From: a virus
Strand: one strand, 5' to 3'
DNA: 33,466 bases
IMG/VR virus record: IMGVR_UViG_3300028481_000016
Location: 1 to 33,466 of that record
Within the stretch, counting starts at the first letter, position 1. Each line of letters starts with the position of its first letter. A program made the translations under genes and the position numbers. The notes under the pieces are model-generated. The model searched no databases, was not told the DNA's origin, and saw nothing but the letters and a program-made list of their open reading frames with translations. Below, piece by piece: positions 2,956 to 27,943 of the stretch.

Positions 2956-3348
2956 GTGTATGATTTAGTCGTTTCTCGTTTATCTTCTTTTGGTTATGAT
3001 TTGCAACCTGGAGATCAGCAAAAAATCGAATATTCTATTTCGCTTGTTTCTGAGTATATTAAAAACTTTTGTAATATTTATGGTGATTTGCCCGAAAGAT
3101 TAAAATATTATACTATTGATAAAATTTGTGGTGATTTCCTTAAGTCTAAGTTGCTGACTGGTAATTTACAATTTTCTGATATTAATTTTTCTTCTCCTGT
3201 TGTTAAAAGTATTACTGAGGGGGATTCTTCTGTTTCTTTTGCCGTTGATAAATCACAAACGCCAGCTCAAATGCTTACTTCTTTTATTGACAATTTGCTT
3301 GCATTTGATAAAAATATTTTGTATCGTTTTAGACGGCTTGAATGGTAA
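2956..3348 (+). CDS. Head-tail connector (SPP1 gp15-like)
   Basis: ORF 2896-3348; GTG at 2956 follows a GAAGGTGA RBS. VKSITEGDSSVSF and the C-terminal YRFRRLEW are typical of this family. Confidence 0.75.
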   Translation: MYDLVVSRLSSFGYDLQPGDQQKIEYSISLVSEYIKNFCNIYGDLPERLKYYTIDKICGDFLKSKLLTGNLQFSDINFSSPVVKSITEGDSSVSFAVDKSQTPAQMLTSFIDNLLAFDKNILYRFRRLEW

Positions 3349-3363
3349 GGAGGTTGTTGTTTT

Positions 3364-3774
3364 ATGTATTTTGATGTCGCTAGAACTGCTATTGAATCTT
3401 TGTATTCTGGACGTTGTACTATATCTATAAAGAGTAAACAATTTAATCAGACTACTAAACAGACTGAGTTTGTTGATACTGTTTTGATCGAAAATCAGCC
3501 TTGCCGTTTGTCTTATCTGAATCTTTATCCTAGCGAGGGAAATGTTCAGCATGGTTTTATTTCAAATAATGTTTCTTCAAAAGAGCGTGAGAGATTTTAC
3601 GTTAAATATCAGACTATAAAATTATTTATTTCTCCTTTAGTTAATGTTCCTCCTGGTTCTAAAATTACTGTTACCCAAAATAATCAAATACAAGTTTATA
3701 AATCTAGTGGACAACCTGCTGTTTATACTAATCATCAGGAAATTGAGTTAGAATTGTTTGATGAGGTGGTTTGA
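3364..3774 (+). CDS. Head-closure / head-tail adaptor protein
   Basis: IESLYSGRC, ENQPCRLSY, KLFISPLVNVPPGSKITVTQ and YTNHQEIEL motifs; position in the block. Confidence 0.75.
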   Translation: MYFDVARTAIESLYSGRCTISIKSKQFNQTTKQTEFVDTVLIENQPCRLSYLNLYPSEGNVQHGFISNNVSSKERERFYVKYQTIKLFISPLVNVPPGSKITVTQNNQIQVYKSSGQPAVYTNHQEIELELFDEVV

Positions 3775-4182
3775 ATGTTTTCTGTTAGAGTTGATATTAA
3801 TGATTTGATAAAATTAAATAATCAAATTAAACATTTGATGACTATAAATCCAAATAATCTCTGTCGTGATATAGCTTCTGAAACTGCACAAAATTTGTTG
3901 GCTGATATTAAATCCAAAACTCCTGTTGATACCGGAAGATTATTAAATAATTGGACTCTTAAAGGGCGAGAACTCCCTTCAGGTTATGAAATAATAATTT
4001 TGAATAATACTGGTTATGCTCATTATGTTGAGTATGGTCATAAGCAAAAAACAAAACATGGTTTTAAGTGGATTGGTGGGATTTATATGTTATCTCGTTC
4101 TTGTAAAAATGCTCGTCCGTTGTTAAAATCAATATCTTTAAAAAGTGTTGCTTCTTTCTTTAGGAGGTTTTTTAAATTTTAA
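3775..4182 (+). CDS. HK97 gp10-like neck/tail-completion protein
   Basis: KTPVDTGRLLNNW and NNTGYAHYVEYGH motifs. Confidence 0.85.
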   Translation: MFSVRVDINDLIKLNNQIKHLMTINPNNLCRDIASETAQNLLADIKSKTPVDTGRLLNNWTLKGRELPSGYEIIILNNTGYAHYVEYGHKQKTKHGFKWIGGIYMLSRSCKNARPLLKSISLKSVASFFRRFFKF

Positions 4183-4613
4183 GACAGATTGTTAATGGAA
4201 TATCCAATAAGTTGTTTTCTTTTTATGGGGCGGTTTATGATATTTATCTTGAGAATGTTTCTCAAAACCTTACTCCACCTTGCTTTTTGATTAACTTAAT
4301 CTCCTCTGATATTAAAATGTATTTTAAACCTCGTTACCGTTTTTATTCTAATTTCGACGTTATTTATTTTAGTAATAATGTTAAACAATATGATGATTGT
4401 TTGGCTCGTTCTTCTGAGTTGTTTGATTTGCTTGAGTATATTACTCTTTCAGATGATTCTCTTATTCGTGGTTCTAAAATGTCTACTTATATTCAAGATG
4501 ATATCTTGTATTTTAATGTTTCTTACAACTTGATTTTGCAAAATAAATCTGACATAATAAACATGATGGAAGAACAAAAAAATAATATTGGAGTGATAAA
4601 TAGATGGGTTTAG
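4176..4613 (+). CDS. Tail terminator/completion protein; probable ATT start at 4176 (ORF track start 4212)
   Basis: ENVSQNLTPPCFLI and FDVIYF motifs. AGGAGG at 4162-4167 lies 8 nt before an in-frame ATT, and an in-frame TAA sits immediately upstream. Confidence 0.7.
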   Translation: MLRQIVNGISNKLFSFYGAVYDIYLENVSQNLTPPCFLINLISSDIKMYFKPRYRFYSNFDVIYFSNNVKQYDDCLARSSELFDLLEYITLSDDSLIRGSKMSTYIQDDILYFNVSYNLILQNKSDIINMMEEQKNNIGVINRWV

Positions 4614-5950
4614 GTGGAGGAACCTTTGTAAGTGTTGGTGAGAAGAAATTACCAGGCAGTTATATTAATTTTGTTTCTACGTCTAGAGCAATTGGAATAT
4701 TAAGTGAGCGTGGATTTGTAGCCATGCCACTTTTATTAGATTGGGGAGTAGAACAAGAAGTTAAAAGTGTAGAGCAAGAAGAAATTGAGAGTAAATCATT
4801 AGTCTTGTTTGGATATGATTATGGCGATGAAGAATTGAAACCGATAAGAGAGATATTCAAACATGCTAGGACATTATATTATTATCGTTTAGGGCAAGGT
4901 GTAAAAGCCACATCTACGATAGCAACGGCTAAATATGCAGGTACACGTGGCAATAAAATAAAAATTGTTACTACGGCTATAATATCGGACGAAACTACAA
5001 CAGGATATACGGTTAAGACCTTTCTTGATGATATTTTAGTTGATAGCCAAGAAGTAAGCGGAGCAACATCAACGACAGACGATTTAGCAGTTAATGATTT
5101 TGTTGATTGGATAGCAGAAGTAAGTTTGTCAGCAGGTACTATTAATTTAAGCGGAGGTACAAATGCGACAGTTACAAGTGGTGACTATGCAACATTTTTG
5201 ACAGCGATAGAACCATATTCGTTTAACACGATAGGATATGCAGGAACAGATTCAGCAGTTAAATCTTTATTTACTTCTTTTACAGAAAGGATGAGAGACA
5301 ATCAAGGGATAAAGTTTCAATGTGTGTTGTATAAGTATGAAAGTGCAAATTACGAGGGGATAATATCAGTTGAGAATAGTCCAGTTAGTAGCAGCAATGC
5401 CGATGGCACCAGTGCCTCTTCTTTAAACCCCTTAGTTTATTGGGTTGTTGGAGCTCAAGCAGGTTGTGCAGTAAATAAATCGAATACAAATATTAAATAC
5501 GATGGCGAATATGATATCAATGTAAGTTATACGCAGGCACAACTTGAAGATGGATTAGATAGCGGTAAGTTTATGTTTCATAAAGTCGGCGATGAAGTAA
5601 GAGTTCTTGAAGATATAAACACATTGACAACATTTTCTGTGGATAAAAACGAAGACTTTAAATATAATCAAACTATAAGAGTAATAGATCAGATAGGAAA
5701 TGATATAGCGGTAATATTTAATACTCAGTTTTTGGGCAAAATACCGAATGACGATAGCGGGAGAGCGTCTTTATGGAATGAGTTAGTTAAATATCATGAA
5801 CGATTGCAAACTGTGAGAGCAATAGAGAATTTTTCAAGTGGGGATATAACTGTTACTGCGGGTGATACCAAGAAGATGGTTGTTGTTGATGAGGTTATAA
5901 CTCCGACTAATTGCATGACGCAACTTTATATGACTTGTAAAATATCTTAA
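4604..5950 (+). CDS. xkdK: Contractile tail sheath protein (XkdK-like)
   Basis: MGLGGGTF..KKLPGSYINF N-terminus, NQTIRVIDQIGND, C-terminal TQLYMT. Confidence 0.92.
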   Translation: MGLGGGTFVSVGEKKLPGSYINFVSTSRAIGILSERGFVAMPLLLDWGVEQEVKSVEQEEIESKSLVLFGYDYGDEELKPIREIFKHARTLYYYRLGQGVKATSTIATAKYAGTRGNKIKIVTTAIISDETTTGYTVKTFLDDILVDSQEVSGATSTTDDLAVNDFVDWIAEVSLSAGTINLSGGTNATVTSGDYATFLTAIEPYSFNTIGYAGTDSAVKSLFTSFTERMRDNQGIKFQCVLYKYESANYEGIISVENSPVSSSNADGTSASSLNPLVYWVVGAQAGCAVNKSNTNIKYDGEYDINVSYTQAQLEDGLDSGKFMFHKVGDEVRVLEDINTLTTFSVDKNEDFKYNQTIRVIDQIGNDIAVIFNTQFLGKIPNDDSGRASLWNELVKYHERLQTVRAIENFSSGDITVTAGDTKKMVVVDEVITPTNCMTQLYMTCKIS

Positions 5951-5967
5951 AAGGAGGCGAATAAAAT

Positions 5968-6441
5968 ATGGCGCAAAAAATGTTGGCAAAAGATACGATA
6001 TCAGCTGCTTTGGCTGAGTGTTATGTCATTATAAATGACAATAGATATAATTTTATGCAGGCAATCAATTTAGAAGCAAAGATAAAAAAAACAAAAACAG
6101 AAGTACCAATATTAGGACAAACTGGTAAAGGCCATAAGGCTGTCGGTTGGAAAGGTACTGGTTCAGCTACTTTTCACTTTAATACGTCAATTTTTGCTAA
6201 ACTTTTAGAAGATTACAAAGATACTGGCAAAGATATATATTTTGATATACAGGTTAAAATAAATGATCCTACGTCATCAGCTGGTTCTTATACTGTTTTT
6301 TTGAAGAATTGCAACTTAGATGGTGGCATATTGACAAAGTTTGACGCTGACGCAGAATATCTTGATTGTGATTTGGATTTCACTTTTGATAATTTTAGTG
6401 TTTATGAGGAATTTGAGCGTTTGGATGGGATGATGTTATAA
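5968..6441 (+). CDS. xkdM: Tail tube protein (XkdM-like)
   Basis: KDTISAALAECY, GHKAVGWKGTGS and FTFDNF motifs; follows the sheath gene. Confidence 0.92.
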   Translation: MAQKMLAKDTISAALAECYVIINDNRYNFMQAINLEAKIKKTKTEVPILGQTGKGHKAVGWKGTGSATFHFNTSIFAKLLEDYKDTGKDIYFDIQVKINDPTSSAGSYTVFLKNCNLDGGILTKFDADAEYLDCDLDFTFDNFSVYEEFERLDGMML

Positions 6442-6479
6442 TTAAAAGGTTTTAACGAGCTAATTTTACAACCAAAATA

Positions 6480-6510
6480 AAAAGCACACCGCATTTGATG
6501 TGCTTTTTTT
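6480..6510. terminator. Bidirectional intrinsic terminator
   Basis: AAAAGCACA-loop-TGTGCTTTTTTT between convergent units. Confidence 0.75.
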
Positions 6511-6621: not shown

Positions 6622-6825
6622 CTAAAGTATATATTGTCTTTTACAAATACATTCTTCTTCTTTATCGCTTGTTTTTGGTATCACACTTGCTCCAGTTAGT
6701 AATTCATATTTTTGCCGACTTATCTCTAATAATTTATTATCTGACTTATTATTTCTTAGATCCCTATTTTCTACATTTCTCTTTATGCCATTTAATAAAT
6801 CATATTTATCAATATTTTTTTGCAA
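6622..6825 (-). CDS. Hypothetical protein
   Basis: ORF 6622-6897; TTG at 6825 follows a GGGGGAAG RBS, downstream of terL. Confidence 0.5.
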   Translation of the reverse strand: MQKNIDKYDLLNGIKRNVENRDLRNNKSDNKLLEISRQKYELLTGASVIPKTSDKEEECICKRQYIL

Positions 6826-6850
6826 TCTTCTTCCCCCTTGACATATTAAT

Positions 6851-8164
6851 TTAATTAAAAGAAAAAATATCACCTTTTGTGAAATCTTCTGTTGCATATC
6901 TCATAGCGTCCATTAAGTGATTAAAATCATCTATCGGCTTATTTATTTGTTTTCCATTTTTATCTGTTTGCCAAGCGTAATTTTGTATTTCTAATAAAAA
7001 ATTTACACAAATTGGATGAACAATAATCTTAAAGTCCTGTAGATAATCAATGCCATTAATAATACTGTCTTTTCCTTTTCTAGCTGCTTTAATACCATGT
7101 ATTCCCAAATCATATAATCTATCTATACTTTTTGGTTCAGCTGAATCCGCTATTATTTTTTCTTTTGAATATCCCATTTTAAATATTTTTTCTGCTATTT
7201 TTTCATTGCTTAAATTCTTTTCATAAAGCTCATCAAATACATATAACAATTTTTCTTGCTCGAATATAATTCCACAAAATAAAGCAGTAGCATCATTAAC
7301 ATATCCAAAGTCAAGACCAAAACAAACTTTTGCATTCGTCCGTTTCTTTATTTCTGATATGTCAAAATCTTCCTCTATAAAATCTTCATATATTAAGCCT
7401 TCTGAAATGCCCCATTCGCCAAGAGCAGCTGTTTTATAACGTCTTGGATTATTAGTCTTCATTTTCTCAAATAATTTTATATCCGCTTCATCCAAAAACT
7501 CATTTATTTTATAAGTTGTTGTCATTGTTAAAACGTCATCATCGGGTTTATCAAAAAATCTCGTTTTTAACCAACATTCAGCCCATGGATTAAACGTAAG
7601 CGTTATCCGTTTCCATAAACCATTAGGCAATTCTCCTCTTATTGACTCGTCTATAAAATCAAAATCTTCCTCTTTCGTAATTTCATATGCTTCCTCGCAC
7701 CAAACAAAACAAATACTTCCAGTTTCTGTTGATATAGATGTTAATTTAAGCGGATCATCCAAACCACGAAATATAATTCGCTGGTGTGTTGGTAAATAAA
7801 CAAGTTCCAGTGGTGATAAAGTTGCTTTCCAATAAGCATTAACTCCTAAACGATTAATTGCCCATTTTAAATCTGAATAACAACTATCTCTTAATGTTCT
7901 TTCTGTCTTCCTTATTACTAGAGCATTTGCACCTGGATGTTGCATTATATGAACTATATGCCATAAAGCAGCTGTCTTTGACTTCTTACTTGCACGGCTA
8001 CCCTTACATATAACATATCGCTTTTTTGTATTCCAGAATTCAGAATAACCTTTACCAATTATATTTTGCAACGATATTCCTTCTTCCTTTACCCATTTCT
8101 TCACTTCTTTCTGTATTATTTTCTCGGAAGTGCTTAATAATCCACGTTTATTTTTCTGTTCCAT
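6851..8164 (-). CDS. terL: Terminase large subunit, PBSX family
   Basis: KGSRASKKSKT Walker A, WCEEAYE Walker B, GLDFGY, ADSAEPKSI and NHLMDAMRYA nuclease motifs. Confidence 0.95.
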   Translation of the reverse strand: MEQKNKRGLLSTSEKIIQKEVKKWVKEEGISLQNIIGKGYSEFWNTKKRYVICKGSRASKKSKTAALWHIVHIMQHPGANALVIRKTERTLRDSCYSDLKWAINRLGVNAYWKATLSPLELVYLPTHQRIIFRGLDDPLKLTSISTETGSICFVWCEEAYEITKEEDFDFIDESIRGELPNGLWKRITLTFNPWAECWLKTRFFDKPDDDVLTMTTTYKINEFLDEADIKLFEKMKTNNPRRYKTAALGEWGISEGLIYEDFIEEDFDISEIKKRTNAKVCFGLDFGYVNDATALFCGIIFEQEKLLYVFDELYEKNLSNEKIAEKIFKMGYSKEKIIADSAEPKSIDRLYDLGIHGIKAARKGKDSIINGIDYLQDFKIIVHPICVNFLLEIQNYAWQTDKNGKQINKPIDDFNHLMDAMRYATEDFTKGDIFSFN

Positions 8165-8171
8165 GATTTAA

Positions 8172-8609
8172 CTATTCAACTACATCATTTTTTATTATAA
8201 TTGGTTTATCACTACCATCAAGTTGTATATCCCATCTATCTCGCCAATTTTTAGAATCTCTATTCTTTAAATAAAACATTAAAGCTGGTACACTCGGGGG
8301 TATATACTTCTTATATATCGTAGTGTTGCCGTCTTTATCAGTCTTTTCTTCTTCTACATAATACCCCTCACACATACGTTTTAAAGCATTTACACAATCA
8401 AATATTGCTGGTTGCAGTCCTTCATAATATGCTCCTTTAAATTTCTCATGTTTACCGCACATATAATAAAAATTACCTTTCGATATTTTCAACACTTTGT
8501 CGCATATATCTTTTATAGACATACCTTCACTTACACATTTAGTCAATAATTTTAAATTAGATGGCTCTAATAATACTTCTTCTTTAAAACTGCTCCCATC
8601 TGTTTTCAC
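8172..8609 (-). CDS. terS: Terminase small subunit
   Basis: N-terminal HTH-like region plus YIPPSVPALMFYLKNRDSKNWRD; directly upstream of terL. Confidence 0.75.
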   Translation of the reverse strand: MKTDGSSFKEEVLLEPSNLKLLTKCVSEGMSIKDICDKVLKISKGNFYYMCGKHEKFKGAYYEGLQPAIFDCVNALKRMCEGYYVEEEKTDKDGNTTIYKKYIPPSVPALMFYLKNRDSKNWRDRWDIQLDGSDKPIIIKNDVVE

Positions 8610-8667
8610 ATCAATTCACTCCATTTTTATTTTTTTCTTTTTTAAAATATCACAAAGGAGAAAAAAA

Positions 8668-9315
8668 ATGAATTATAAATTTATAATTGATAATATTGTT
8701 TTACCTATCACTCCTAAAGAGATAAAAACAAAAATAAACAATAAAAACTCTACTATCGACATTATTAATTTAGGAGAGGTAAATATATTAAAATTACCAG
8801 GTCTCAATACTTTTGAATTTGATTTCGTGGCTCCTGCTTTTAACTATCATTTTGTTTCTGATTTTAAAGAACAAAACTTCTATTACTCTTGGCTCGAAAA
8901 ATTAAAAACTGAAAAAAAAATATTCCCTTTCTCTATCTCAAGACAACTTCCTGACGGTAGCATTAAATATCCTACTATCGCTAACGTATCTCTAGAAGAA
9001 TATTCTATATTAGAATCTTCTGACGAGGGATTTGATATCATTTTCTCAGTAATACTCAAACAATATAAACATTTCCATACTCAATATATCCAAATTAGCA
9101 ACTCTAATAACGGTGATAAAACTGTTCAACAAAAAAAACAACGAGAATATACTAAAGAACCAGAAAAAACTTACACTGTTAAAAAAGGTGATACGCTCTG
9201 GAATATCGCTAAAAAAGAATTAAATGACGGGGCTAAATATATTGATATTGCTAAACTAAACAACATCGAAAATCCTAATAAAATATATCCAGGTCAAATT
9301 CTAAAACTAAATTAA
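8668..9315 (+). CDS. xkdP: LysM-domain tail protein (XkdP-like)
   Basis: LPITPKEIK, VSLEEYSI and C-terminal LysM YTVKKGDTLWNIAKK..NPNKIYPGQILKL. ATG 8668 follows AAAGGAG. Confidence 0.9.
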   Translation: MNYKFIIDNIVLPITPKEIKTKINNKNSTIDIINLGEVNILKLPGLNTFEFDFVAPAFNYHFVSDFKEQNFYYSWLEKLKTEKKIFPFSISRQLPDGSIKYPTIANVSLEEYSILESSDEGFDIIFSVILKQYKHFHTQYIQISNSNNGDKTVQQKKQREYTKEPEKTYTVKKGDTLWNIAKKELNDGAKYIDIAKLNNIENPNKIYPGQILKLN

Positions 9316-9372
9316 AAAAATACCTGACAAATATTTTTCATATTATAAAATAAATAAAGGTGGAATATAAAT

Positions 9373-9771
9373 ATGTTGCCTAACATTAATTTGACAGATA
9401 ATATCGAATTTAAATCACAAACATCAAACACATACAAATTAAACATTAAAAAAAATAATATATCGGGGTTTATAGACGAAATTAATGCAGTAAAACAAGC
9501 GGTATATTTAATCCTTAATATTGAACGTTATCGTTATTTGATTTATGATTGGGATTATGGATTCGAAATATCTGACTTAATCGGTCAAGATATTAACATT
9601 ATACAAATTGAAATTCAAAAGCGTATATCTGACGCTCTAAAACAAGATGAAAGAATTATTGATGTTTACGACTTCATCTTTAAAAAAATAAACAAAATTT
9701 TACATGTAACTTTCTCTATTAATACAATATTTGGAGAATATACTGAGGAAAAGAACTTTGAAATAGCTTAA
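9373..9771 (+). CDS. xkdS: Baseplate wedge protein DUF2634 (XkdS-like)
   Basis: AVKQAVYLILNIERYRYLIYDWDYGFE and DALKQDERI motifs. Confidence 0.88.
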   Translation: MLPNINLTDNIEFKSQTSNTYKLNIKKNNISGFIDEINAVKQAVYLILNIERYRYLIYDWDYGFEISDLIGQDINIIQIEIQKRISDALKQDERIIDVYDFIFKKINKILHVTFSINTIFGEYTEEKNFEIA

Positions 9772-9791
9772 TAAATGGGGGTGTTTGTAAC

Positions 9792-10910
9792 TTGAATGAA
9801 AACATCGGCATAAATAATAAAATTACCGTTACACAAAATTACACGGAAACCTTTTCTCAAATTAATCAAATAATAGAAAAAACTATCACAGATATAAATA
9901 ATCTCTCAAACGTATCTCAAAACATATTTAACATCAAACAAATTGAAAGCACAAAAGAGAAACTATCTGATCTAGCAATAAATAACATTCCTGATTTGTC
10001 ATGGCTTAATTCTATACCTGAAAAACTTACTAACATAAATAACTCAATCGCTAATATCAATAATTCAATCGCTAATACTATATCTTCAATTTCTGCCCCT
10101 ATTGAAACAACAGAAAACAATATCTCAAATATAAACTTAACTCTAAATTCAATCTCCGCAAATGCTATAGCAACATCAAATATAATTACTTCAGCAATAA
10201 ATAGCATAAATAATCAAATCATAAATTCTTATATGCTTATCAATAATACGTCTGGCTCTACTTTCTCATTAATTAATGATTCATTGTATTTTACTGCCAA
10301 TTCATTTTTAAGCACTTTCAACTATATTCAAACCGCTTTCTCTAATTTGACAAATTTCACTCAAAATATCGGCTCAGCTTCGGTAAGTTTTTGGACTAAT
10401 ATCGCCAATAAAATTTCAAATGTTATGATTAACTCAATAAACGACATTATAAAATCATGGAATAACCTGTTAAATTTGATTGGAACAAATATATCTGCTA
10501 ATATGAACATAACAAAAAAAGAAACTACATCTTATAAAAATATAATTAAATCTTCTACAATCTCAATCCCTCAAACATTAGCTAATAACAACATCTCAAA
10601 AAATATCGGAACAACTACTAAAAATAACTCATCTATCCCTACAAATATTCTAAACAATGTAATCAGTAAAGCAAATAACAATACAAATAATATACTAACT
10701 TCTAACAATGAAAACAAAAATATAAAATACATTCAAGAATCAGCTTTTAAAGAATCAAATAACACTTTCAACTCAAACAATATAAAAATAAATATGACTA
10801 ACAACAACAACATAAGCTCAAATATGGATGTGAACGACGTAATTAATAACATGACCAAACTTTTACACGAACAATTAAATATACAAGCAAACGGTATAAA
10901 TAATTATTAA
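9792..10910 (+). CDS. Short, N/S/I/T-rich tape-measure-like protein (XkdO-like termini)
   Basis: C-terminal IKINMTNNNNISSNMDVNDVINNMTKLLHEQL resembles the end of clostridial myophage tape measures; no other candidate in the window. Confidence 0.6.
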   Translation: MNENIGINNKITVTQNYTETFSQINQIIEKTITDINNLSNVSQNIFNIKQIESTKEKLSDLAINNIPDLSWLNSIPEKLTNINNSIANINNSIANTISSISAPIETTENNISNINLTLNSISANAIATSNIITSAINSINNQIINSYMLINNTSGSTFSLINDSLYFTANSFLSTFNYIQTAFSNLTNFTQNIGSASVSFWTNIANKISNVMINSINDIIKSWNNLLNLIGTNISANMNITKKETTSYKNIIKSSTISIPQTLANNNISKNIGTTTKNNSSIPTNILNNVISKANNNTNNILTSNNENKNIKYIQESAFKESNNTFNSNNIKINMTNNNNISSNMDVNDVINNMTKLLHEQLNIQANGINNY

Positions 10911-10922
10911 GAGGTGATTATT

Positions 10923-11678
10923 TTGAGCACAAATACGCATATTATCAAAATTTGTATTGATGCAGGACACGGTGGCAAAGATCCTGGTGCTGTTTATGGT
11001 GATTGGTTGGAGAAAGAATTTACTCTTGATATCGCTTTAAAATTAAAGAAAAAACTTAATAGCTATAAACAAATAAATGCTATTATGACAAGAGAAACAG
11101 ATGAATTTATAAGTTTGTCTGCTCGTTGTCTTGTTGCTAATCAGAATAAATGCGATTTGTTCGTTTCTATTCATATAAACTCAGCTACTAATCAATTAGC
11201 TAGCGGAATAGAAACTCATATATACAGCAAAAATGAAAATTTGACAGGGCAAATTTTCCAAAATAAATTAATAGAAGCCACACAAGCAATTAATCGAGGT
11301 GTTAAAATTAGCCCTACTTTATATGTATTAAACTCAACTAAAATGCCATCTGTTTTACTTGAACTCGGATTTATTAATAACTTTAATGATATAAACAAGC
11401 TAAGGAAAGAAACTTATCGAGATAATCTTGCTACAGCCATTGAAAAAGCTATTTGCAGATATTTTAATATCGAAGTTTTAAAAGAAAACAAAAAGGAGCG
11501 TATAAAAATGATATACAAGACTGTTAACGAGATACCTGAATATGCTAAAAGTATAATTAAAGATTTAGTCGATTCGGGTGTTATTAAAGGCGAAGAAAAC
11601 GGTAATTTAAACTTGTCGGATGAAATGATAAGAACTATTATTATTACTAAACGTATGATCGAGAGGGAAAAAGCTTAA
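10923..11678 (+). CDS. Endolysin, N-acetylmuramoyl-L-alanine amidase (Amidase_3)
   Basis: IDAGHGGKDPGA, FVSIHINS and VLLELGFINN. ORF starts at 10914; the RBS favours TTG 10923. Confidence 0.92.
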   Translation: MSTNTHIIKICIDAGHGGKDPGAVYGDWLEKEFTLDIALKLKKKLNSYKQINAIMTRETDEFISLSARCLVANQNKCDLFVSIHINSATNQLASGIETHIYSKNENLTGQIFQNKLIEATQAINRGVKISPTLYVLNSTKMPSVLLELGFINNFNDINKLRKETYRDNLATAIEKAICRYFNIEVLKENKKERIKMIYKTVNEIPEYAKSIIKDLVDSGVIKGEENGNLNLSDEMIRTIIITKRMIEREKA

Positions 11679-11679
11679 T

Positions 11680-12335: not shown

Positions 12336-12358
12336 TAATTAAATAGAGGAGGTAATTT

Positions 12359-13679: not shown

Positions 13680-13691
13680 AGGAGGTTTATT

Positions 13692-19303: not shown

Positions 19304-19334
19304 AAGCACCAGTGCTCCTTATTTAAAACCATTT

Positions 19335-19892: not shown

Positions 19893-19905
19893 TTAAAATC
19901 ACTCC

Positions 19906-21183
19906 TTATAAAATCATAATTTGTATATGTGTTTCATCAATGCGTTTCATAACACGATATTTTGTCTTTTCTTCTGAATATGTCGCAATTGAATTTTCAT
20001 TTGGTTTTACATATCCGTTAATCTCTGATGTTCCGTCATCAATACATATTAATTTTCCTAACAATCCAACTGCTATCCATTCTTTTCGTTTATCTCTTGC
20101 TATATATGGCTGAGTATTATCATATTGTTTTGAAACTTTAAGCTGTTCCTCTGTATGTTCTTCGACAATAATATTCCCGTCATCGTCTTTTTCTTCTGGT
20201 ATAGTCACAGTTTCATAAATTGGTCTGCCGAAAATATCTTGTTCAAACATATATGCCCATTGATCAGAATGTGAATCCCCTATTACTGACGGATTACCAG
20301 AAACAACGCCTAAAATATAATCATCTTGGCTAGTTGCAAGTTTTATTTTATCTCCGTCAAGAGTAACAAATTTACCAATTCTATCTTCATTTGCAATATT
20401 TCCATCAAGCCATTCAAACATTTCAGCATAGTCCGCACCAGAAGAACTATATGTTTTTCCGTAAACTTTTGATTCTGTCGCTCTTAAACAATTGGCTGTT
20501 GCCGAAGAACCTGTTCCACATCCAACAATAAAATAACCACTATCTGTTGTATAAGACAACGTAGAGCCTTTTTCAACATTATACCTTCCAACCACCGTTT
20601 GATAGAAATTAGCAGCAGTGTGATAACCAGTCGCATGCGAATAGTGACCCTTAGCCGCAGTGGCTTGACCCTCTGCATGCGCAAAATTACCACTTACTGT
20701 TGTATTCCACCCCTCTGCATGTGAATACATTCCACTTGCCGTTGTATTGTACCCCTCAGCATGTGAATAATTTCCACTTGCTGTTGTGTCGTCGCCTTCA
20801 CAAGTTGCGTATGAACCTATCGTTGTACCTGATTTTTGCCCTGTCCTTATATATCCATTAGCATTACCTGTCCCACCTGCTGTAATCGGTATCATTCCTG
20901 TTACATTGCTTAAATCTTTATCTGCCTTATTACTTAAAGCAGTATCTACGCCAAGATTAGTTAAAGCATCAGAAGCTGTTGTTGCTCCTGTTCCACCATT
21001 TGCTATTGCTATTGCTCCACCTGAAACATTTGAAAAATCGGTATTGAGTTTACCATCTAAAGCGGTATCTATATCCCCAACAGCCGTATCGATTATATCC
21101 GCATTGTTATTAAAATCAGCAACACTAAAATAATCAGTTCTTGCTGGCTTCTTTAAATTTAAATTTTCTGTGTAATCAGCCAT
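19906..21183 (-). CDS. Tail fibre with YadA-like 14-aa repeats and a C-terminal Peptidase G2 autocleaving chaperone domain
   Basis: TTASGNYSHAEG repeats; GADYAEMFEWLDGN..GKFVTLDGDKI and EWIAVGLLGKL motifs. Confidence 0.85.
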   Translation of the reverse strand: MADYTENLNLKKPARTDYFSVADFNNNADIIDTAVGDIDTALDGKLNTDFSNVSGGAIAIANGGTGATTASDALTNLGVDTALSNKADKDLSNVTGMIPITAGGTGNANGYIRTGQKSGTTIGSYATCEGDDTTASGNYSHAEGYNTTASGMYSHAEGWNTTVSGNFAHAEGQATAAKGHYSHATGYHTAANFYQTVVGRYNVEKGSTLSYTTDSGYFIVGCGTGSSATANCLRATESKVYGKTYSSSGADYAEMFEWLDGNIANEDRIGKFVTLDGDKIKLATSQDDYILGVVSGNPSVIGDSHSDQWAYMFEQDIFGRPIYETVTIPEEKDDDGNIIVEEHTEEQLKVSKQYDNTQPYIARDKRKEWIAVGLLGKLICIDDGTSEINGYVKPNENSIATYSEEKTKYRVMKRIDETHIQIMIL

Positions 21184-21209
21184 TTTAAAACTCTCCCCTT
21201 TTTAAACAA

Positions 21210-21839
21210 TTATAACTTTGCTATATCACTGAAAGTATAATCTTCTAAACTACCATAATCATAAGATTCTAAGTTTAAATATTCATTGATAAAAAAGTTT
21301 TCTTCTATCCTTATCTCATAACACGTATAATTCACTAATAATCTATATCTATACGGTTTTATAATTTTGTATTGATTGTATTTTAAGCTAACATTACATA
21401 TTAAATTTGCAGGTATTACTCTGGCTAATAAATTCGATACTTCATCAAATTGATTTTGTCGACTTAAACTTAATAGTACTGTAAGAGTATAATTCTCATT
21501 ATCTAAAGTCATAGTATAATCATCAGCACAAATATTACGCAAGAAATTTTCTAACTGTCTATAAGTATAAGGCAATGAAGCATTTATTCTAGCTAAAATT
21601 GCCAATCGTCTATCTTCTACTGTCGCTGTGCCTTTTGGAGTTATATCCAACATTTTTTCCCAACGTGTGCAACCTTGTTCGTCTAAAGTGTTTATAAATT
21701 GATTGTTAAACGTCTTCCTGTGATTTTCCCACAAACTATTTATAGTAGGATTTTCTGCATTTGCTATTTCTTGATATTCTGTTACATCCTTAATCACATC
21801 TGGCAAATAATCTAATATATCTATATTTAATCTATCCAT
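21210..21839 (-). CDS. xkdU: Baseplate protein DUF2313 (XkdU-like)
   Basis: YLPDVIKDV, RWEKMLDITP, EDRRLAILAR and VIPANL motifs; ATG 21839 overlaps the portal stop. Confidence 0.85.
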   Translation of the reverse strand: MDRLNIDILDYLPDVIKDVTEYQEIANAENPTINSLWENHRKTFNNQFINTLDEQGCTRWEKMLDITPKGTATVEDRRLAILARINASLPYTYRQLENFLRNICADDYTMTLDNENYTLTVLLSLSRQNQFDEVSNLLARVIPANLICNVSLKYNQYKIIKPYRYRLLVNYTCYEIRIEENFFINEYLNLESYDYGSLEDYTFSDIAKL

Positions 21840-23301
21840 TATTGCCTTCTTTTGCCCCTTTTTTAATATTATCATCTACATCATTATCTGTTTTTTTGCT
21901 ATCATTTACTTGAAGATTATTATTAACAAAATGTTCTTCTTGAATTTGTTTTTCTTCTTGTTCTACGTCATAAACATATGGATGATTTTTTAATAATGTT
22001 TTGTGTGAAACTATACCAACTGAATTTTTTATATCATTTATAACCTGTGATTCATTAGTTATTTGATCTTTATTAAATATAATTTCAGTATCATCATTAA
22101 AGAAATTGCCAATATTCCTATTTGCTAAATCTGCTTTGAAAAACCATAAAATTCGTTTTAAAGAGTGTTTAAATTCTAAATCCATACTATTTGCGTCCAT
22201 ATCTATATCATTCAATACAGATTTTATTTGTAGTTCATTAGGTTCATTTCCAGAACGTAAATCTATTGCGTCGTATGCTTTTGCTATGCTTATCATTTCT
22301 TTTTTTATAAACTCAATAAATTCTTTGTATTGCCCTGTATTAATTTCTACTTTTAATAATTTAACATCACCATCTTCTCTAATTTTAACCGCGCCATAAG
22401 TTGCTAAATTCTGTCTGAACTCGCCTAAATTTTCACCATCATAATTTTTTAATACTAATATTGAATTTCTGCTATCTTCCTGCATATCATTTCTCCAATC
22501 ACTCAAAGCAGTATTTAGAACATCTTGTAATGTTTTTAAATCACGTATTAAAGGCAACATAAAATAATTATACTTGAAATAAGTTATTGGTATTTTACCC
22601 CAATTATAATTTTTATTGTTAATTTTAAAATATGCTCCTGATTCTTTAGTTGTATCTTGTATTAATTGGTTATTAATAAAATTATAGTATTCTATACCAT
22701 CTTGTTTATATATTTCTACTTTATGGCATATCTTAAACTCACCATTTACATATTTTTTTATATCATAAAATCTAATAACAAATTCAAGTTCTGTTTTTTC
22801 TTCGTCTGCCCATATCGGTAAAATTTCATAAGGAGCAAATCTTTTTAATTTAAAATTGCCTTTTTCGTCATAGTAAGCATAAAGCCAACCAATGCCACAA
22901 TTAAGAGAATCAGCGCAAATAGCTTTCATCAATATATTAAAGTCATAGTCGAAATATTTGTTAATTTCATCTTGAAGTTTTTTATTAACAGCTAATTCTG
23001 CTAAAAAAGTAACGCTTTTACTTACTAGATAATTTGTCTTTTGGTCAACTAATTTTTTATATTGATTATCTACTATTTTATTATTCGGCAAATTATCTAC
23101 TTCTATAAGTTTCCCATCGTTACCTATTGCGGTTCTTTTTCTAAACAAAATATCATGTATTCCTTTATAGTACTTATTACCTGCTATTTGTTCCAATCTA
23201 TCTTTTGAAAATAACCAATCTACAATGCGTTTTTCGTTAACTTTCAAATTTATTGTTATTGGTTGTTCTGGCAAATCCTGTTTGAATAGATTTAAAAACA
23301 T
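21832..23301 (-). CDS. Portal protein, SPP1 gp6-like
   Basis: YYKGIHDI, NQYKKLVDQKTNYL and ILVLKNYDGENLGEFRQNL motifs; ATG 23301 follows AAGGAGG. Confidence 0.93.
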   Translation of the reverse strand: MFLNLFKQDLPEQPITINLKVNEKRIVDWLFSKDRLEQIAGNKYYKGIHDILFRKRTAIGNDGKLIEVDNLPNNKIVDNQYKKLVDQKTNYLVSKSVTFLAELAVNKKLQDEINKYFDYDFNILMKAICADSLNCGIGWLYAYYDEKGNFKLKRFAPYEILPIWADEEKTELEFVIRFYDIKKYVNGEFKICHKVEIYKQDGIEYYNFINNQLIQDTTKESGAYFKINNKNYNWGKIPITYFKYNYFMLPLIRDLKTLQDVLNTALSDWRNDMQEDSRNSILVLKNYDGENLGEFRQNLATYGAVKIREDGDVKLLKVEINTGQYKEFIEFIKKEMISIAKAYDAIDLRSGNEPNELQIKSVLNDIDMDANSMDLEFKHSLKRILWFFKADLANRNIGNFFNDDTEIIFNKDQITNESQVINDIKNSVGIVSHKTLLKNHPYVYDVEQEEKQIQEEHFVNNNLQVNDSKKTDNDVDDNIKKGAKEGNNG

Positions 23302-23339
23302 TTGTTTTACCTCCTTACATAATAGATTTAAAAACATTT
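23285..23339 (+). repeat. 19-bp direct repeat flanking the portal RBS
   Basis: AATAGATTTAAAAACATTT at 23285-23303 and 23321-23339. Confidence 0.85.
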
Positions 23340-23546
23340 TTATTCACTCCGCTTTTTATATACAAACATTTCTTGTATTGGAACTTTCAAATATTCACAA
23401 ATTGAAAACGCATAATCCATATTGGGTTGATATTTATTATTACACCATCTATTCACGCTTTGATATGAAACAAATATTGCTTCACTTAACTCCAATTCAC
23501 TTATCTTTCTTTCTTGAATAATCTTTTTTATATTGTTTTTAACCAT
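23340..23546 (-). CDS. XRE/HTH_3 transcriptional regulator
   Basis: NNIKKIIQERKISELELSEAIFVSYQSVNRWCNNKYQPN; ATG 23546 follows GGAGG. Confidence 0.85.
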   Translation of the reverse strand: MVKNNIKKIIQERKISELELSEAIFVSYQSVNRWCNNKYQPNMDYAFSICEYLKVPIQEMFVYKKRSE

Positions 23547-23562
23547 ATGAACCTCCAAGAAA

Positions 23563-23670
23563 TTGAGCCTTTCATGACTAAAACCACTAGATTCTTGGGA
23601 ACTCCTTTCTATTGAAAAGATATTTACCAAGCTATCCCGATAGTTCCCACCGTTCTTTTATTCGTCTACG
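23563..23670 (-). ncRNA. omegaRNA scaffold / IS200-IS605 right end of tnpB copy 1
   Basis: GAACGGTGGGAACTATCGGGATAGCTTGG...GAATCTAGTGGTTTTAGTCATGAAAGGCTCAA ends in TCAA; predicted guide 23543-23562. Confidence 0.75.
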
Positions 23671-24769
23671 CCACTTCTAACATCCTCAATCCTTCATTAA
23701 GAATATTTATGGCTGCATTTACATCTCTGTCATGATGCGTATGACAACAAGGACATTTCCATTCTCTAATACTAAGATTTTTCACATCCTTATTAACATA
23801 CCCACAACAATTACAAGTCTGTGAACTAGCATAGAATTTATCTACTTTAACAACTTGTTTTCCATACCAATTTGCTTTGTATTCTAATTGTCTTACAAAT
23901 TCTGACCATGACACATCTGCGATTGACTGTGCGAGTTTATGATTCTTAATTATATTCTTTACTTGTAAATCTTCTAGACAGATAACATCATTATTTCTGA
24001 TAATTTCAGTAGATAATTTTTGTAAAAAATCTTTTCTCTGATTAGCAATATGTTCTTGAAGTCTTGCAACTTTGATCCTTGCTTTATTACGATTTGAACC
24101 ACCTTTTGTTTTTCGAGATAGTTGTCTTTGCAACTTTGCGAGTTTATCTAAAGACTTCTTCAAATACTTTGGATTTGAAATCATTTCACCGTCAGATGTA
24201 ATACAAAATTCTTTTATTCCTAAATCAATTCCAACTACATTTTCAGTTTTCTCAAATGGTTTGATGTCCACATCTGTACAACAAATAGATACAAAATATT
24301 TTCCACTTGGTTTTTGTGATACAGTTGCATTAAGAATCCTACCTTTTGGTATTAACTTGTTTTTCGTCTTTACCATTCCAAGTTTAGGCAATTTAATATG
24401 CTTGTCACAATACTGAATATTTCCATTTACACATTTTGACTTATATGAAAATCTATGTGTTTTCTTGGATTTGAATTTAGGATAGCCAGTGTGTTCTTTA
24501 AAGAACTTTTGATAAGCATAATCCAAATCTTTAAGCGAAGATTGAAGAGCAGTAGAATCAACTTCTTTTAACCATTCCAACTCTGATTTGAGTTTTTTCA
24601 TGTCATTTGCACACTGTACATATGAAAATGTTTCTTTATTCTGTTCATACGTTTCAATTCGTTTTGCAAGATATTTATTATACACAAATCGACAGCATCC
24701 AAACGTTTTTGCAATTATTTCTTTTTGCTTTTTATTTGGATATATACGATACTTATAAGCTTTTTCCAC
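23666..24769 (-). CDS. tnpB: TnpB RNA-guided endonuclease (IS200/IS605 family), copy 1
   Basis: [12 protein letters not shown]; GIDLG, LEDL and [10 protein letters not shown] RuvC motifs intact; Zn ribbon; GTG start follows GAGGTG. Confidence 0.95.
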
Positions 24770-24809
24770 CAACTTCACCTCACTTTCTTTTTTGATAAGA
24801 AAATAAAAA

Positions 24810-25082
24810 TTAATTTGGAAAAACATATTTCATTGCTCTTGCACTATCATTTATCCCTTGTGTTGTTGGATCATTTATTGTATTTAAAACATTAATTACA
24901 ATAACTCCTAATATATAAGGGTTACATAGTGCATCTTTTAAAAGTTTAAATACTTTATCCCAACCTGTTAAATCTTTAAAATTTAATCCGTAATAAGTTA
25001 ATAATGGTGTAAAAACAGCTAAAAATACTTGCCACCACCAAATCGGATTATTTATTCTGACCGTCCAATTTATATCCATCAT
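24810..25082 (-). CDS. Holin, phiLC3 family
   Basis: [13 protein letters not shown] and [16 protein letters not shown] motifs. Confidence 0.92.
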
Positions 25083-25411
25083 TTTTCCAATGCTTCTATA
25101 CGTTTCAAAAGTTCATTGTACTTAATCTCTTGCGCGGTTAATTGTGCTATTATCAATACATATTCTGTTCCGTTATATTTAAGCTCATGAAAGATCTCAT
25201 AATTTGTATACACATAATCATTATCATTATCTTTTATTGTTATAGTTCCACTAATCAAATTTGTACTTGCAAAAGTTTTTAAATCTGTATTATTCCATTC
25301 TTTTAAATGAATAATTAAACATTCTCTATCCGCACCATGACTATAACGTCTTTCTAATTCTACCAATTCGCAATTTAATTCTAACCCACTCTCAAATATA
25401 ATTTTGCTCAT
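25079..25411 (-). CDS. Hypothetical protein, possibly a tail-fibre assembly helper
   Basis: ORF with a GGAGTGA RBS; C-terminal short coiled coil. Confidence 0.5.
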   Translation of the reverse strand: MSKIIFESGLELNCELVELERRYSHGADRECLIIHLKEWNNTDLKTFASTNLISGTITIKDNDNDYVYTNYEIFHELKYNGTEYVLIIAQLTAQEIKYNELLKRIEALEK

Positions 25412-25452: not shown

Positions 25453-26424
25453 TCAATATTGAAAACCACTAACAAGTAAATCAGCAAAATATTGATCGTT
25501 AGAAAAATTATGAGTTGCATGTTCGACCAACATTAATTGTTGTAATATCAAATCACCAAGATCAAAATCACAATATACCGTTGCACCTGCTCTTAATCGT
25601 ATATCACCTAATGTATTTTTTATAGTCAACAAACGATTAGTTTTATTATATAAATTCAGCATAGTTTTAGCCTTATTAGTTGGATTTTCATTCTCATTTA
25701 ATTTTTCAGTTAATTGTAATATTCCCCATCTATCAACATTAAAATTATCTTGCTCTGGATAAAATTTACGCTGTTTTTCTATATCCTCATACAAAATAAT
25801 CTTGTTATATACTTCATTATCAATTGTAGTTTTATAATCAAAATTTTGTGTAGAATTACCATTAATAATTATATCATTTACAAGCAATGTATTTAAATCT
25901 ACTAATGACAATTTTCCTGCATCATCATATAAAGTAAATAACTTACCTGTATTTAAATAAGTCTCTGATATAGCAAACTGAATCATATCAATTAATGTTG
26001 TATTATCTTCTATTCTTGAAGATATCTTATACCCTGTATCTTGTATTTCCCCAGTAACTAAACCAAAATCAGAAGCTATCATTTTTACTAATTCAGAAGC
26101 AGTTTTATTCTCATATATATAAGTATGTTTATTTTTTAAATATCTCATCTGGTCATATGCTACAACTTTTATATGATGTTCTTTATCCCTTGACTTTTCA
26201 AAAACAAAACCTTTAAATATATCTTTTTGTTTATACCTAAATATTACTAAGCTCCCCTCATTAAACGAAACAAGATTATCTTTTATGACTGTAAACATTA
26301 ATTTGCTAGGCGAATCTTTTCTAAATGTTTCCCATATAATCTCATTTTTAACTATCGGAAAAAACATTTGCTTATCATAATTTTGTATATATAATTCAAG
26401 GTCAATAGACTTATTATCCAACAT
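25453..26424 (-). CDS. xkdQ: Baseplate hub / late control D protein (XkdQ-like)
   Basis: SPSKLMFTV, VAYDQMRYLKNK, LYDDAGKLSL and GDIRLRAG motifs. Confidence 0.9.
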   Translation of the reverse strand: MLDNKSIDLELYIQNYDKQMFFPIVKNEIIWETFRKDSPSKLMFTVIKDNLVSFNEGSLVIFRYKQKDIFKGFVFEKSRDKEHHIKVVAYDQMRYLKNKHTYIYENKTASELVKMIASDFGLVTGEIQDTGYKISSRIEDNTTLIDMIQFAISETYLNTGKLFTLYDDAGKLSLVDLNTLLVNDIIINGNSTQNFDYKTTIDNEVYNKIILYEDIEKQRKFYPEQDNFNVDRWGILQLTEKLNENENPTNKAKTMLNLYNKTNRLLTIKNTLGDIRLRAGATVYCDFDLGDLILQQLMLVEHATHNFSNDQYFADLLVSGFQY

Positions 26425-26451
26425 AAAAAAACACCACCGCTTATAAAACCG

Positions 26452-26856
26452 TTAAAATGGTAAATCAATGTTATCTAATTCTTTTAATTTATCATTATCT
26501 TCTTTTAAAAGTTCACTTAAATCTTTTTTATCGTCTTTTTTACTGTCAGCAAAATACTGTTCTTCCACAACAACTTCATTAACATAAACTTTTTCTTTTT
26601 TATCATTATCATAATTTCTAGTTTGTATTCTACCTATAACACCAAATAATCTACCTTTTTTCATATATTTTTCTGCAAACTCAGCGGACTTCCCAAAAGC
26701 AACACAATTTATAAAATCTGCTGATGGCTGTCCTTCTTTTTTAAACCGTCTATCTACCGCTAATGTATATCTAGCTATAGCTAACATATTCTCACTTTGT
26801 GTATATCTGACATCTGGATCTTTAGTTAAACGCCCAAGTAGTATTACTTTATTCAT
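26452..26856 (-). CDS. ssb: Single-stranded DNA-binding protein
   Basis: MNKVILLGRLTKDP, ADFINCVAFGK, acidic DLPF tail. Confidence 0.95.
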   Translation of the reverse strand: MNKVILLGRLTKDPDVRYTQSENMLAIARYTLAVDRRFKKEGQPSADFINCVAFGKSAEFAEKYMKKGRLFGVIGRIQTRNYDNDKKEKVYVNEVVVEEQYFADSKKDDKKDLSELLKEDNDKLKELDNIDLPF

Positions 26857-26875
26857 AATTTCCCCTCCATTTTAT

Positions 26876-27943
26876 CTATGCAGGTGACAAAGAATTTAAT
26901 GCAACAATATTATTTGCTTGTGCCTGATAATTTTCTGCCACATTGTTTATCTCTGTATCTGCAACATCTATTATACCAGAAACATTTAATAAATGTGTTT
27001 CAATTTGAGAAATTCTGACTATAATATTATTTTGGTTTTCCCAATCTGAATTCAATTCAAGCAAATATTGATTTATCGTCTGTTCCGCTAAATCTTTCAC
27101 ATCTTCCCATACATAACCATCTTGCAAAGTTATTTCTGATACTATATTGATATCTTCTACTCCTACTCCTGCGACTGTTACGACATGTCCTATTGGTGCA
27201 ATTCCTAACCCAGTACCGCTATTTTGTATCGGATCAATTATTGTTTGTACCTGATCAATCAATGTCAAACTCGGCTGTTGAAATAATGAATTTTGTATCA
27301 CCAATTTTACTGTTCCGCCACCATTCCAAACAGGATAAACTTTAACACCACCAACACCATCTATCGATTTTGTTTTATATTTATAATCAATTACATTCCC
27401 ACCAAATGCTTCTGTCTGTACGCTTAAAAAATATCTTTTTCTAAAATCTTCAGTGCTTTCTTCATCTTCTCCTGGTATTAATATTTCAGTTATTTCGGCA
27501 TATTCTAACCCTTGAATATAATTAATTGGTATTAATTGTCCTAAAACATAAGAAGGCTCTGCTCCTGTCTCTTCACATTGTAATTTATAATTCTCATCAC
27601 TTATTTTTTCAGTAACAATATAATTAAATTTATCAAGAGAAAATCTTTCTCCAATACTCAATTCCAAACTTGACGGTGTTATTTCTGCTTTAACTATACA
27701 ATGTGTAGCAGGATAAGGTGTTATCCCCCTTTCTTCTGCTCTTTTTATTAAGTATTCTCTTGAAGCGGTATCAGCAAACGTTTCATTTAATATTACATCC
27801 AAATTTATATACATATTTTGTAATTCGACAGCAGCAGGTGCTAATGCGTTATATACAATAGAACCCTGTCTTTTATCAATTGTATCTGGTACTCTTGCCA
27901 ACATCGCATTTAATATCACTTCAAAAGTATATTCTTCAAACAT
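26876..27943 (-). CDS. xkdT: Baseplate J protein (XkdT-like)
   Basis: MFEEYTFE, DKRQGSIVYNALAP, FGGNVIDY, WNGGGTVK and APIGHVVTV motifs. Confidence 0.93.
   Translation of the reverse strand: MFEEYTFEVILNAMLARVPDTIDKRQGSIVYNALAPAAVELQNMYINLDVILNETFADTASREYLIKRAEERGITPYPATHCIVKAEITPSSLELSIGERFSLDKFNYIVTEKISDENYKLQCEETGAEPSYVLGQLIPINYIQGLEYAEITEILIPGEDEESTEDFRKRYFLSVQTEAFGGNVIDYKYKTKSIDGVGGVKVYPVWNGGGTVKLVIQNSLFQQPSLTLIDQVQTIIDPIQNSGTGLGIAPIGHVVTVAGVGVEDINIVSEITLQDGYVWEDVKDLAEQTINQYLLELNSDWENQNNIIVRISQIETHLLNVSGIIDVADTEINNVAENYQAQANNIVALNSLSPA

Follow-up and report, generated by a model that had tools for sequence, protein, structure and literature searches.

A myophage virion gene set in scrambled order that recurs in independent assemblies and is permuted among close relatives

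The IMG/VR virus record IMGVR_UViG_3300028481_000016 is a single contig of 33,466 bp with ~30% GC, and the whole of this contig, referred to below as the window, carries the virion genes of a contractile-tailed phage in an order that departs from the one usual for its family. Genes were assigned by PHROG and Pfam scans of all sizeable open reading frames (ORFs), with matches above the curated cut-offs accepted, and a full set of families for head, neck, sheath, tube, chaperone, tape measure, baseplate (P, Q, R, S, T and U), fibers and lysis was identified. A sequence-only reading of this DNA had described a complete virion gene set shuffled over both strands, and the scans placed the named genes where it had put them, almost gene for gene. 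The families are those of the PBSX/skin/phiCD119-type Xkd myophages and prophages of Firmicutes, namely Terminase_3, the SPP1-type portal, Phage_scaffold, the sheath, the DUF2001 tube, XkdN, the LysM XkdP, the YQBQ XkdQ, the DUF2577 XkdR, XkdS, the Baseplate_J XkdT, the Gp48-like XkdU, the holin and Amidase_3. Unlike those phages, the window lacks the colinear late operon and has Rep_3 replicons instead of an integrase. A megablast search of the window against a phage collection gave no match, and the best match for the large terminase subunit (terL) in that collection was 61%. The habitat appears to be the rumen or ruminant gut, judging from record names and the JGI (Joint Genome Institute) sample series.

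From the left, the virion genes begin with a plus-strand block (block 4, 2896..6441) of canonical internal order that has a promoter-like site at 2896-2924 and consists of two head–tail adaptors (2896/2956-3348 and 3364-3774), Neck1 (3775-4182), the tail terminator (4212-4613; PF20765), the sheath (4604-5950) and the tube (5968-6441; PF09393, DUF2001 tube). Between the convergent tube and terL units is a hairpin with flanking A and T runs (6479..6508), predicted to be a likely bidirectional terminator. Block 1 (6622..8609, minus strand) holds terS (8172-8609), terL (6851-8164; PF04466) and a conserved 91-aa ORF downstream that accompanies terL in relatives. A 58-nt divergent control region and a LysM XkdP-like gene (together 8610..9315, plus strand; the gene at ~8668-9315) precede a long plus-strand run (9316..15240) made up of XkdS, the sheath initiator (9373-9771; PF10934), a tape-measure-like ORF of 372 aa (9792-10910, a weak assignment from a C-terminal match only, E=3.7e-8), an Amidase_3 (10914-11678), five conserved ORFs to which no function could be assigned, one of them a DUF7841, and XkdN (14618-15043; PF08890) with a frameshift extension. 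As a result of this arrangement the tail assembly chaperone XkdN lies 3.7 kb downstream of the tape measure, as opposed to directly upstream of it in the canonical order. Block 3 (15443..17734, minus) comprises the scaffold (17147-17734; PF06810), the major capsid protein (15924-17132) and a 112-aa ORF. The remaining virion genes are all on the minus strand: the portal, XkdU (Gp48), a Peptidase_G2 fiber, a second fiber and XkdR (DUF2577) at 18941..23337; a 110-aa ORF, the holin, an IS605-type TnpB (~23563-24797) and an XRE regulator, the true start of which is at ~23546, at 23340..25411; and a cassette of XkdT (Baseplate_J), SSB and XkdQ (YQBQ) with its own extended -10 promoter at 25453..28121. 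Beyond these lie a second TnpB, a Rep_3 initiator (b) and an origin module (B) at 28337..31094, so that transcription along this strand would run Rep_3, TnpB, XkdT, SSB, XkdQ, orf, holin, TnpB, XRE, portal, XkdU, Peptidase_G2 fiber, second fiber, XkdR.

The finer observations of the sequence-only reading on these genes were also borne out. The new junctions have been tightened, as in the overlap of the portal stop with the XkdU start, where 8 nt are shared (ATGGATAG); the gaps flanking ssb are 19 and 27 nt; the holin and the amidase are 13 kb apart on opposite strands; and most genes have a GGAGG or GGAGTG ribosome-binding site. One of its labels found no confirmation: the ORF at 11680-12306, which it had called a receptor-binding protein, matched no PHROG or Pfam family, and protein-atlas look-ups of this ORF and of 13069-13482 were uninformative.

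To describe the degree of scrambling, the virion set was coded as 14 canonical blocks, and distances between orders were counted in double-cut-and-join (DCJ) events, with random signed permutations as the comparison. All 14 block adjacencies are broken, giving 14 breakpoints, in agreement with the claim that from M through U no canonical neighbor pair survives, and the window does not have the single colinear late operon (terS-terL-portal-scaffold-capsid-connectors-K-M-N-O-P-Q-R-S-T-U-fiber-lysis). SSB, XRE and Rep genes are interspersed among its virion genes. The order of the window, designated type W, is 10 DCJ events from the canonical order, and types C and E, two of the orders found in relatives, are at 12 and 7 events, respectively, compared with a mean of 11.6 for random permutations. 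The order of the window is in effect randomized. Types W and C are 5-6 events apart. Type E was considered as an intermediate towards type W and rejected, since it is nearer to the canonical order yet 11 events from W; that distance makes it a separate path.

Relatives were gathered by protein search; ENA and Logan assemblies contained many homologues of the capsid protein, at 79-96% identity, and their contigs were then retrieved. Type W recurs in at least seven other assemblies at 90-99% protein identity, its carriers being IMG metagenome-assembled genome (MAG) 2799112903 (contigs L001 and L007), STEW19-named records (L174-176 and L183), ERZ27279896 and ERZ914831. Gene order in the two MAG contigs (93-99% aa identity) follows that of the window along two stretches, tube|terL|terS|XkdP|XkdS|tape measure|amidase and XkdT-SSB-XkdQ-orf-holin-XRE-portal; the contigs differ from the window by point substitutions and by the absence of both TnpB elements. 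A chimeric assembly had been named as one outcome that would overturn the shuffled order. It does not apply, as the junctions of the window are reproduced in at least seven independent assemblies, with record names that point to several studies, and the same order at 90-99% identity in independent assemblies means that it is not an artefact of assembly. The scrambled order is therefore real and reproducible. Some type W genomes, though not the window, have an HNH endonuclease gene (RRXRR + HNH) between XRE and the portal (463-1728 in L175; ~2582-3847 in L182, L183 and L184).

The ends of the contig point to a unit that closes on itself. Positions 1..130 are repeated at 33337-33466 with 129 of 130 nt identical, and L001 runs from the end of the window straight into its start with a single copy of the 130-nt stretch. 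Given this overlap and the passage of L001 across the junction, the unit is ~33.3 kb, either a circle or a terminally redundant genome.

Comparison of gene order among close relatives, which had been put forward as the way to see ongoing shuffling, showed at least five more orders in relatives whose capsids are 80-96% identical (types C, D, E, F and G). Type C was found in IMG 3300012983 contigs and four TONG22 samples, type D in ERZ27280717 and ERZ919342, type E in SRR16606025 and ERZ27280168, type F in one STEW19 contig, part of which is matched by a short ERZ27280741 contig, and type G in ERZ914901 only. One old, fixed REARRANGEMENT is thus not the explanation, given that close relatives differ in order. 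Several non-canonical adjacencies are common to types W and C: P divergent from terS, S-O-lysin, T-SSB-Q, holin-XRE-portal-U, and R beside the scaffold. Of these, the XkdT-SSB-XkdQ cassette is kept as a unit, promoter included, in both types, and the divergent pair (P leftward, terS rightward) is found in types W, C, D, E and G. About 50 more distant relatives (30-69% capsid identity) have the canonical terL-portal-scaffold-capsid-connectors-K-M-N-O-P-Q-R-S-T-U order over the stretches recovered; a partial doubt attaches to L173 (68% capsid identity), where the genes ahead of the scaffold gene are fiber-like and not the portal. The proposal that this is a tailed-phage lineage in which late-operon synteny has been abandoned is accordingly supported, as neither a chimera nor a single fixed order accounts for the data. 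Each order holds from sample to sample at 90-99% identity, and the shuffling is therefore a continuing process of evolutionary time and not a switch within a population.

Variable cargo was observed between virion blocks in three relatives: L161 (15259-15855), L179 (3726-4685, 8745-9701 and 10595-11521) and L185 (11783-13345 and 16274-16773). The genes at these loci include a formate/nitrite-transporter-family gene, several DNA methylases (EcoRI-methylase-like and N6_Mtase) and ParE toxin-antitoxin genes.

The virion genes have been under selection since the orders diverged, as the ratio of nonsynonymous to synonymous divergence (dN/dS) between types W and C is 0.05-0.16 for the capsid, terL, portal, sheath, tube, XkdN, XkdQ, XkdT, amidase and DUF7841 genes. 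The synonymous divergence (dS) between neighboring genes in the same comparison varies from 0.14 to >2. Relative to a type D genome the window is a gene-sized mosaic, in which the capsid is 96% identical but the scaffold 46-49%, and terL is 92% identical but terS 41%. The switches in identity are very sharp, falling within ~80 nt of gene boundaries, and such boundaries indicate that near-identical alleles move between differently ordered genomes.

A shared promoter-like motif offers a way in which separated blocks could be expressed. The motif TTGTG(A/T)TAT(A/T), which is predicted to be a sigma-A-like extended -10 promoter, is found upstream of terS, the scaffold, XkdT, Rep_3b and early genes; the copy upstream of the scaffold block is TTGTGATATA (17817-17826). 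The window has 31 matches to it versus 15.5 expected, a number reached in 0 of 100 shuffles. A k-mer search for a special late-promoter motif returned this extended -10 motif only, and a generic promoter and terminator scan was barely above the shuffled expectation in the AT-rich window. Hairpin terminators are predicted between convergent blocks. With several units that each have a housekeeping-type promoter, expression would be independent of one long late transcript and the order of the blocks free to vary.

The window also encodes the replication and recombination functions of a plasmid-like element. Two Rep_3 initiators, both matching PF01051 and PF21205, are present. The first (18130-18894) lies with origin module A at 17735..18894 on the plus strand, between block 3 and the portal block, where there are a (CG)n(TA)n tract, three ~22-nt iterons and a DnaA-box-like sequence; the second, Rep_3 initiator b (29553-30608, minus), accompanies origin module B, which has at least four 22-nt iterons and a (CG)n(TA)n tract. 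A plasmid-type initiator and an iteron origin alongside virion genes are among the marks of a phage-plasmid, and the window has both. Tracts of (CG)n followed by (TA)n, which are prone to form non-B DNA, mark all three origin-like modules (17854-17880, 30973-31010 and 31797-31825), and Rep_3 adjoins only two of the three. An ERF-family single-strand annealing recombinase (1999..2553, plus; PF04404, E=1.4e-11) is the candidate recombination enzyme. Relatives of types D, E and F encode ERF as well, and each of the five types other than W has Rep_3 or ERF genes, at junctions that vary, with up to three Rep_3 genes per relative. Conversely, among five near-complete canonical relatives a tyrosine integrase is present in four, and ERF and Rep_3 in none. 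No match to PF00239 or PF00589 (integrase, resolvase or invertase) was found in six frames of the window, and no integrase in the called-gene lists of the retrieved portions of the scrambled relatives. ParA and ParB were likewise not found in the window, and ParE toxin-antitoxin genes occur only in the relative L185. The suggestion of an active reshuffling or multi-replicon history consequently stands in one half: a multi-replicon history fits the two Rep_3 genes and three origin-like modules, while a programmed machine does not, there being no invertase, integrase, resolvase or TnpA in the window.

Scrambled genomes are further distinguished by their internal repeats, with 2.3-22.6 repeat pairs per 10 kb versus 0-0.9 in 17 canonical genomes. 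The repeats are of several kinds: promoter-leader cassettes, origin modules with (CG)n(TA)n tracts, TnpB copies and the homologous N-termini of fiber genes. In addition, types C, D and G have a dispersed repeat of ~300 nt, absent from type W, with a GAGAGAG hairpin, inverted ends (GCGGTGACTTGCAA ... TTGCAAGYCACCGC) and a hydrophobic ORF of 38-47 aa, by which features it resembles a type I toxin-antitoxin cassette. It occurs at block junctions in both orientations, at 1-800, 14422-15139 and 17701-18160 of L161; 3292-3598, 14307-14739 and 18100-18603 of L177; 135-592, 3975-4681, 6126-6947 and 13419-14145 of L185; and 5813-6260 and 8138-8478 of c157. Some junctions retain what look like scars of rearrangement. 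A second copy of the sequence following XkdP lies at 15242..15290 and includes the exact 14-mer TGACAAATATTTTT, also present at 9325-9338, so that the same 14-mer is at two W/C breakpoints, one copy beside XkdP and the other beside the capsid block. The XkdQ|orf junction of type W falls on an A-tract; in type C this tract belongs both to the margin of the dispersed element and to the ribosome-binding region of the gene that comes in. In L161, 224 nt from the 5' end of the scaffold gene are duplicated.

Taken together, these features make it probable, in our judgment, that the window is a complete natural genome of ~33.3 kb. It would most likely belong to a temperate myophage whose host is a low-GC Firmicute of the ruminant gut, where it is maintained as a Rep_3 plasmid. 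In its clade, the colinear Xkd/phiCD119-type late operon was probably split into cassettes, at least five of them and each with its own promoter, that are spread over both strands and were repeatedly permuted, presumably by recombination between repeats. We propose that the lineage switched to plasmid-type replication and gained the ERF annealing recombinase, and that dispersed repeats (promoter cassettes, origin modules, IS605/TnpB copies and the ~300-nt toxin-antitoxin-like repeat) then built up. Low-fidelity annealing recombination by ERF and SSB, acting on repeats that are short or diverged and lie in a single replicon or in multi-copy or co-resident ones, could give rise to inversions, transpositions and molecules that have fused and then undergone deletion. 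The need for a packageable size and for every virion gene may then act as a filter, such that the genomes that pass would hold a single copy of each gene, rearranged in order and mosaic in their alleles.

A number of points weigh against this explanation. The promoter motif is also on early genes, which leaves the timing of late expression unaccounted for, and the gene order is known from assembled contigs alone. The IMG/VR label for the record is linear and 72% complete, although its estimates, including that of CheckV, were probably misled by the single mismatch in the 130-nt overlap and by the odd architecture. Microhomologies of 10-14 nt are easily found in DNA of 30% GC. Repeats, ERF, Rep_3 and scrambling are correlated in what is essentially one clade, so that the link amounts to a single evolutionary event, and the repeats could be a consequence of rearrangement rather than its cause. 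Lastly, some members of the clade may be defective: XkdT of the type W copy L007 (2475-3499) is interrupted by 62-nt and 44-nt deletions, making it either a defective copy or an assembly error, and the type W tape measure is unusually short, at 372 aa, and rich in Asn, Ile, Ser and Thr.

These last two points are among those that would be expected if the element were a domesticated or decaying plasmid-borne prophage, whether a defective element, a tailocin or a producer of particles like gene transfer agents, in which gene order no longer matters. The low complexity of the short tape measure, the plasmid features of relatives (Rep_3 and ParE toxin-antitoxin genes) and the fact that the phage is known here from its genes alone also accord with that possibility. 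Nevertheless, we consider it unlikely, because capsid, portal, terminase, tail and lysis genes are all there with low dN/dS maintained across orders, the unit sizes of 31-39 kb suit a self-packaging genome, and near-identical capsid and terL alleles have been swapped between lineages, as in circulating phages. A tailocin, moreover, would not retain the capsid, portal and terminase.

The tape measure itself varies among relatives, being 545 aa in type D, 912 aa in type E and 713-715 aa in canonical genomes, and this spread predicts tails of differing lengths built with near-identical sheath and tube proteins; at 372 aa, the candidate in the window would specify a tail about half the length of those in relatives with tape measures of 715-912 aa. 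The candidate in the window (9792-10910) has a coding-strand GC skew of -0.41, and its odd excess of C over G is due to its Asn/Ile/Ser/Thr-rich composition. An inverted origin was considered for the opposite strand-composition signatures of co-oriented genes and ruled out, as the amino-acid composition of the tape measure and XkdP explains them.

Another candidate for the cause of the scrambling is the IS200/IS605 (TnpB) elements, inserted copies of which would serve as portable homology, with recombination inverting or moving segments and precise excision erasing the trace. Genomes of the clade have one to three TnpB copies at intergenic sites that differ among members. The two in the window (~23563-24797 and ~28337-29560, both minus strand and IS605-type) both match phrog_506 (E<=1e-135), and the first has the domains PF12323, PF01385 and PF07282 (HTH_OrfB_IS605, OrfB_IS605 and Cas12f1-like TNB). 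Both are clean insertions relative to empty sites in L007 (5600-5625 and 2100-2165), in a colinear background that is 94-99% identical, and their right ends terminate in ...CTCAA or ...TTCAA. A local inversion was also noted, in that the 20-nt segment adjoining the right end of the second element (~28300-28320) is inverted compared with ~2165-2185 of L007. For all that, it is quite improbable that the elements are the main cause: the mapped sites (holin|XRE, Rep3b|XkdT, SSB|XkdQ, portal|XkdU and amidase|orf) match no W/C breakpoint, the two copies in the window are only ~80% identical and in direct orientation, and the window has no TnpA (Y1), as judged by the lack of a PF01797 match, so that mobilization must rely on TnpA supplied in trans. 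We regard the TnpB elements as contributors only.

A programmed, site-specific system of shuffling, in which an invertase or a recombinase of the shufflon type produces several orders per population, could be entertained on the grounds that block orientations alternate and that a serine recombinase of 198 aa (resolvase/invertase family) is encoded in L185, but it is very improbable, given that the window itself lacks such enzymes, that no common crossover site was found at the junctions, and that each order is fixed over many samples and separated from the others by substantial sequence divergence. An artefact, either a chimera of several phage strains or an error of amplification or assembly, would be the natural suspicion for a metagenome-derived viral contig and can for practical purposes be dismissed, since the same junctions occur across studies and assemblers at 2-10% divergence with insertions present or absent, all junctions are between intact genes, and L001 closes the circle.

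Two further features of the window were noted. A comparatively GC-rich, 342-nt non-coding stretch (2554-2895) lies 5' of the first adaptor gene and has a repeated 31-mer (2603-2633 and 2685-2715); it could be a predicted packaging site or structured leader, and an Rfam search of the window at gathering thresholds found nothing there or elsewhere. In the 433-nt gap between XkdT and the second TnpB, a small plus-strand ORF (~28230-28295), preceded by a strong ribosome-binding site, would specify a peptide of ~21 aa that is very hydrophobic and similar to a type I toxin. A search of the window for tRNA genes found none.

Parts of the explanation that we favor, of a phage-plasmid with a split and repeatedly permuted late operon, have counterparts in known systems. 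P1 is a plasmid prophage with a contractile tail whose late genes are in many operons on both strands, and the late genes of T4 are similarly dispersed. The window resembles P1 in its likely plasmid maintenance and in the distribution of head, tail and packaging genes over both strands in several units, each with a promoter of its own; as P1 demonstrates, virions can be assembled without a single colinear operon. P1 and T4 are, however, much larger, have dedicated late activators and late promoters, and keep their dispersed order stable across their families, whereas here a genome of 33 kb belongs to a normally colinear family, the order varies at 80-96% capsid identity and the promoters look sigma-A-like. 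The proposed course of events has a logic similar to that of the tandem-duplication/random-loss model of mitochondrial gene order. The cycles of fusion and deletion described for multi-replicon plasmids (PMC13672794) are also comparable, in that the scrambled genomes have several Rep_3 modules at varying positions, partial duplications at junctions, essential genes once only and an enrichment of mobile elements. No cointegrate or dimer intermediate was observed, and this likeness is a model and not a demonstrated pathway.

The closest parallel for the proposed recombination is the mosaicism attributed to relaxed recombination by Rad52-like proteins such as Red-beta, Erf and Sak, which shares with the window ERF and SSB, sharp gene-sized boundaries and junctions on short shared sequences (PMC3945230). 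A recombinase of the Erf family recombines diverged sequences efficiently, and it has been argued that phages tolerate relaxed recombination because their genomes normally lack internal repeats and so avoid rearrangement (PMC3945230). The known cases swap alleles with gene order kept, in contrast to the scrambled clade, which is repeat-rich and rearranged. No account of a scrambled Xkd-type module came up in literature searches.

The order of head, neck and tail genes is among the most dependable features of tailed phages and is usually explained by co-transcription, by linkage of genes whose products interact or by ordered assembly. Conserved order is used for annotation and classification, for example in neck-module typing (PMC4362835). 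The clade described here breaks this rule repeatedly inside an otherwise obedient family while selection on its virion genes continues, and its matched scrambled and colinear relatives make it possible to test why order is normally conserved; the correlates indicated are plasmid replication, an annealing recombinase and internal repeats. Such genomes can mislead annotation based on synteny, completeness estimates and tools for locating prophage boundaries, as when this closed genome was scored as linear and incomplete. A stronger proposition, which we find possible and put forward tentatively, is that virion gene order is effectively free in this living lineage, with cointegration and resolution of co-resident phage-plasmids with multiple Rep_3 replicons, through the action of ERF on repeats, continually re-dealing genes singly and in small cassettes while infectious particles are still made. 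If so, the clade would be a natural experiment indicating that gene order in tailed phages is upheld by the lifestyle of the genome, that is, by a single late transcript and few repeats, and not by a requirement of assembly.

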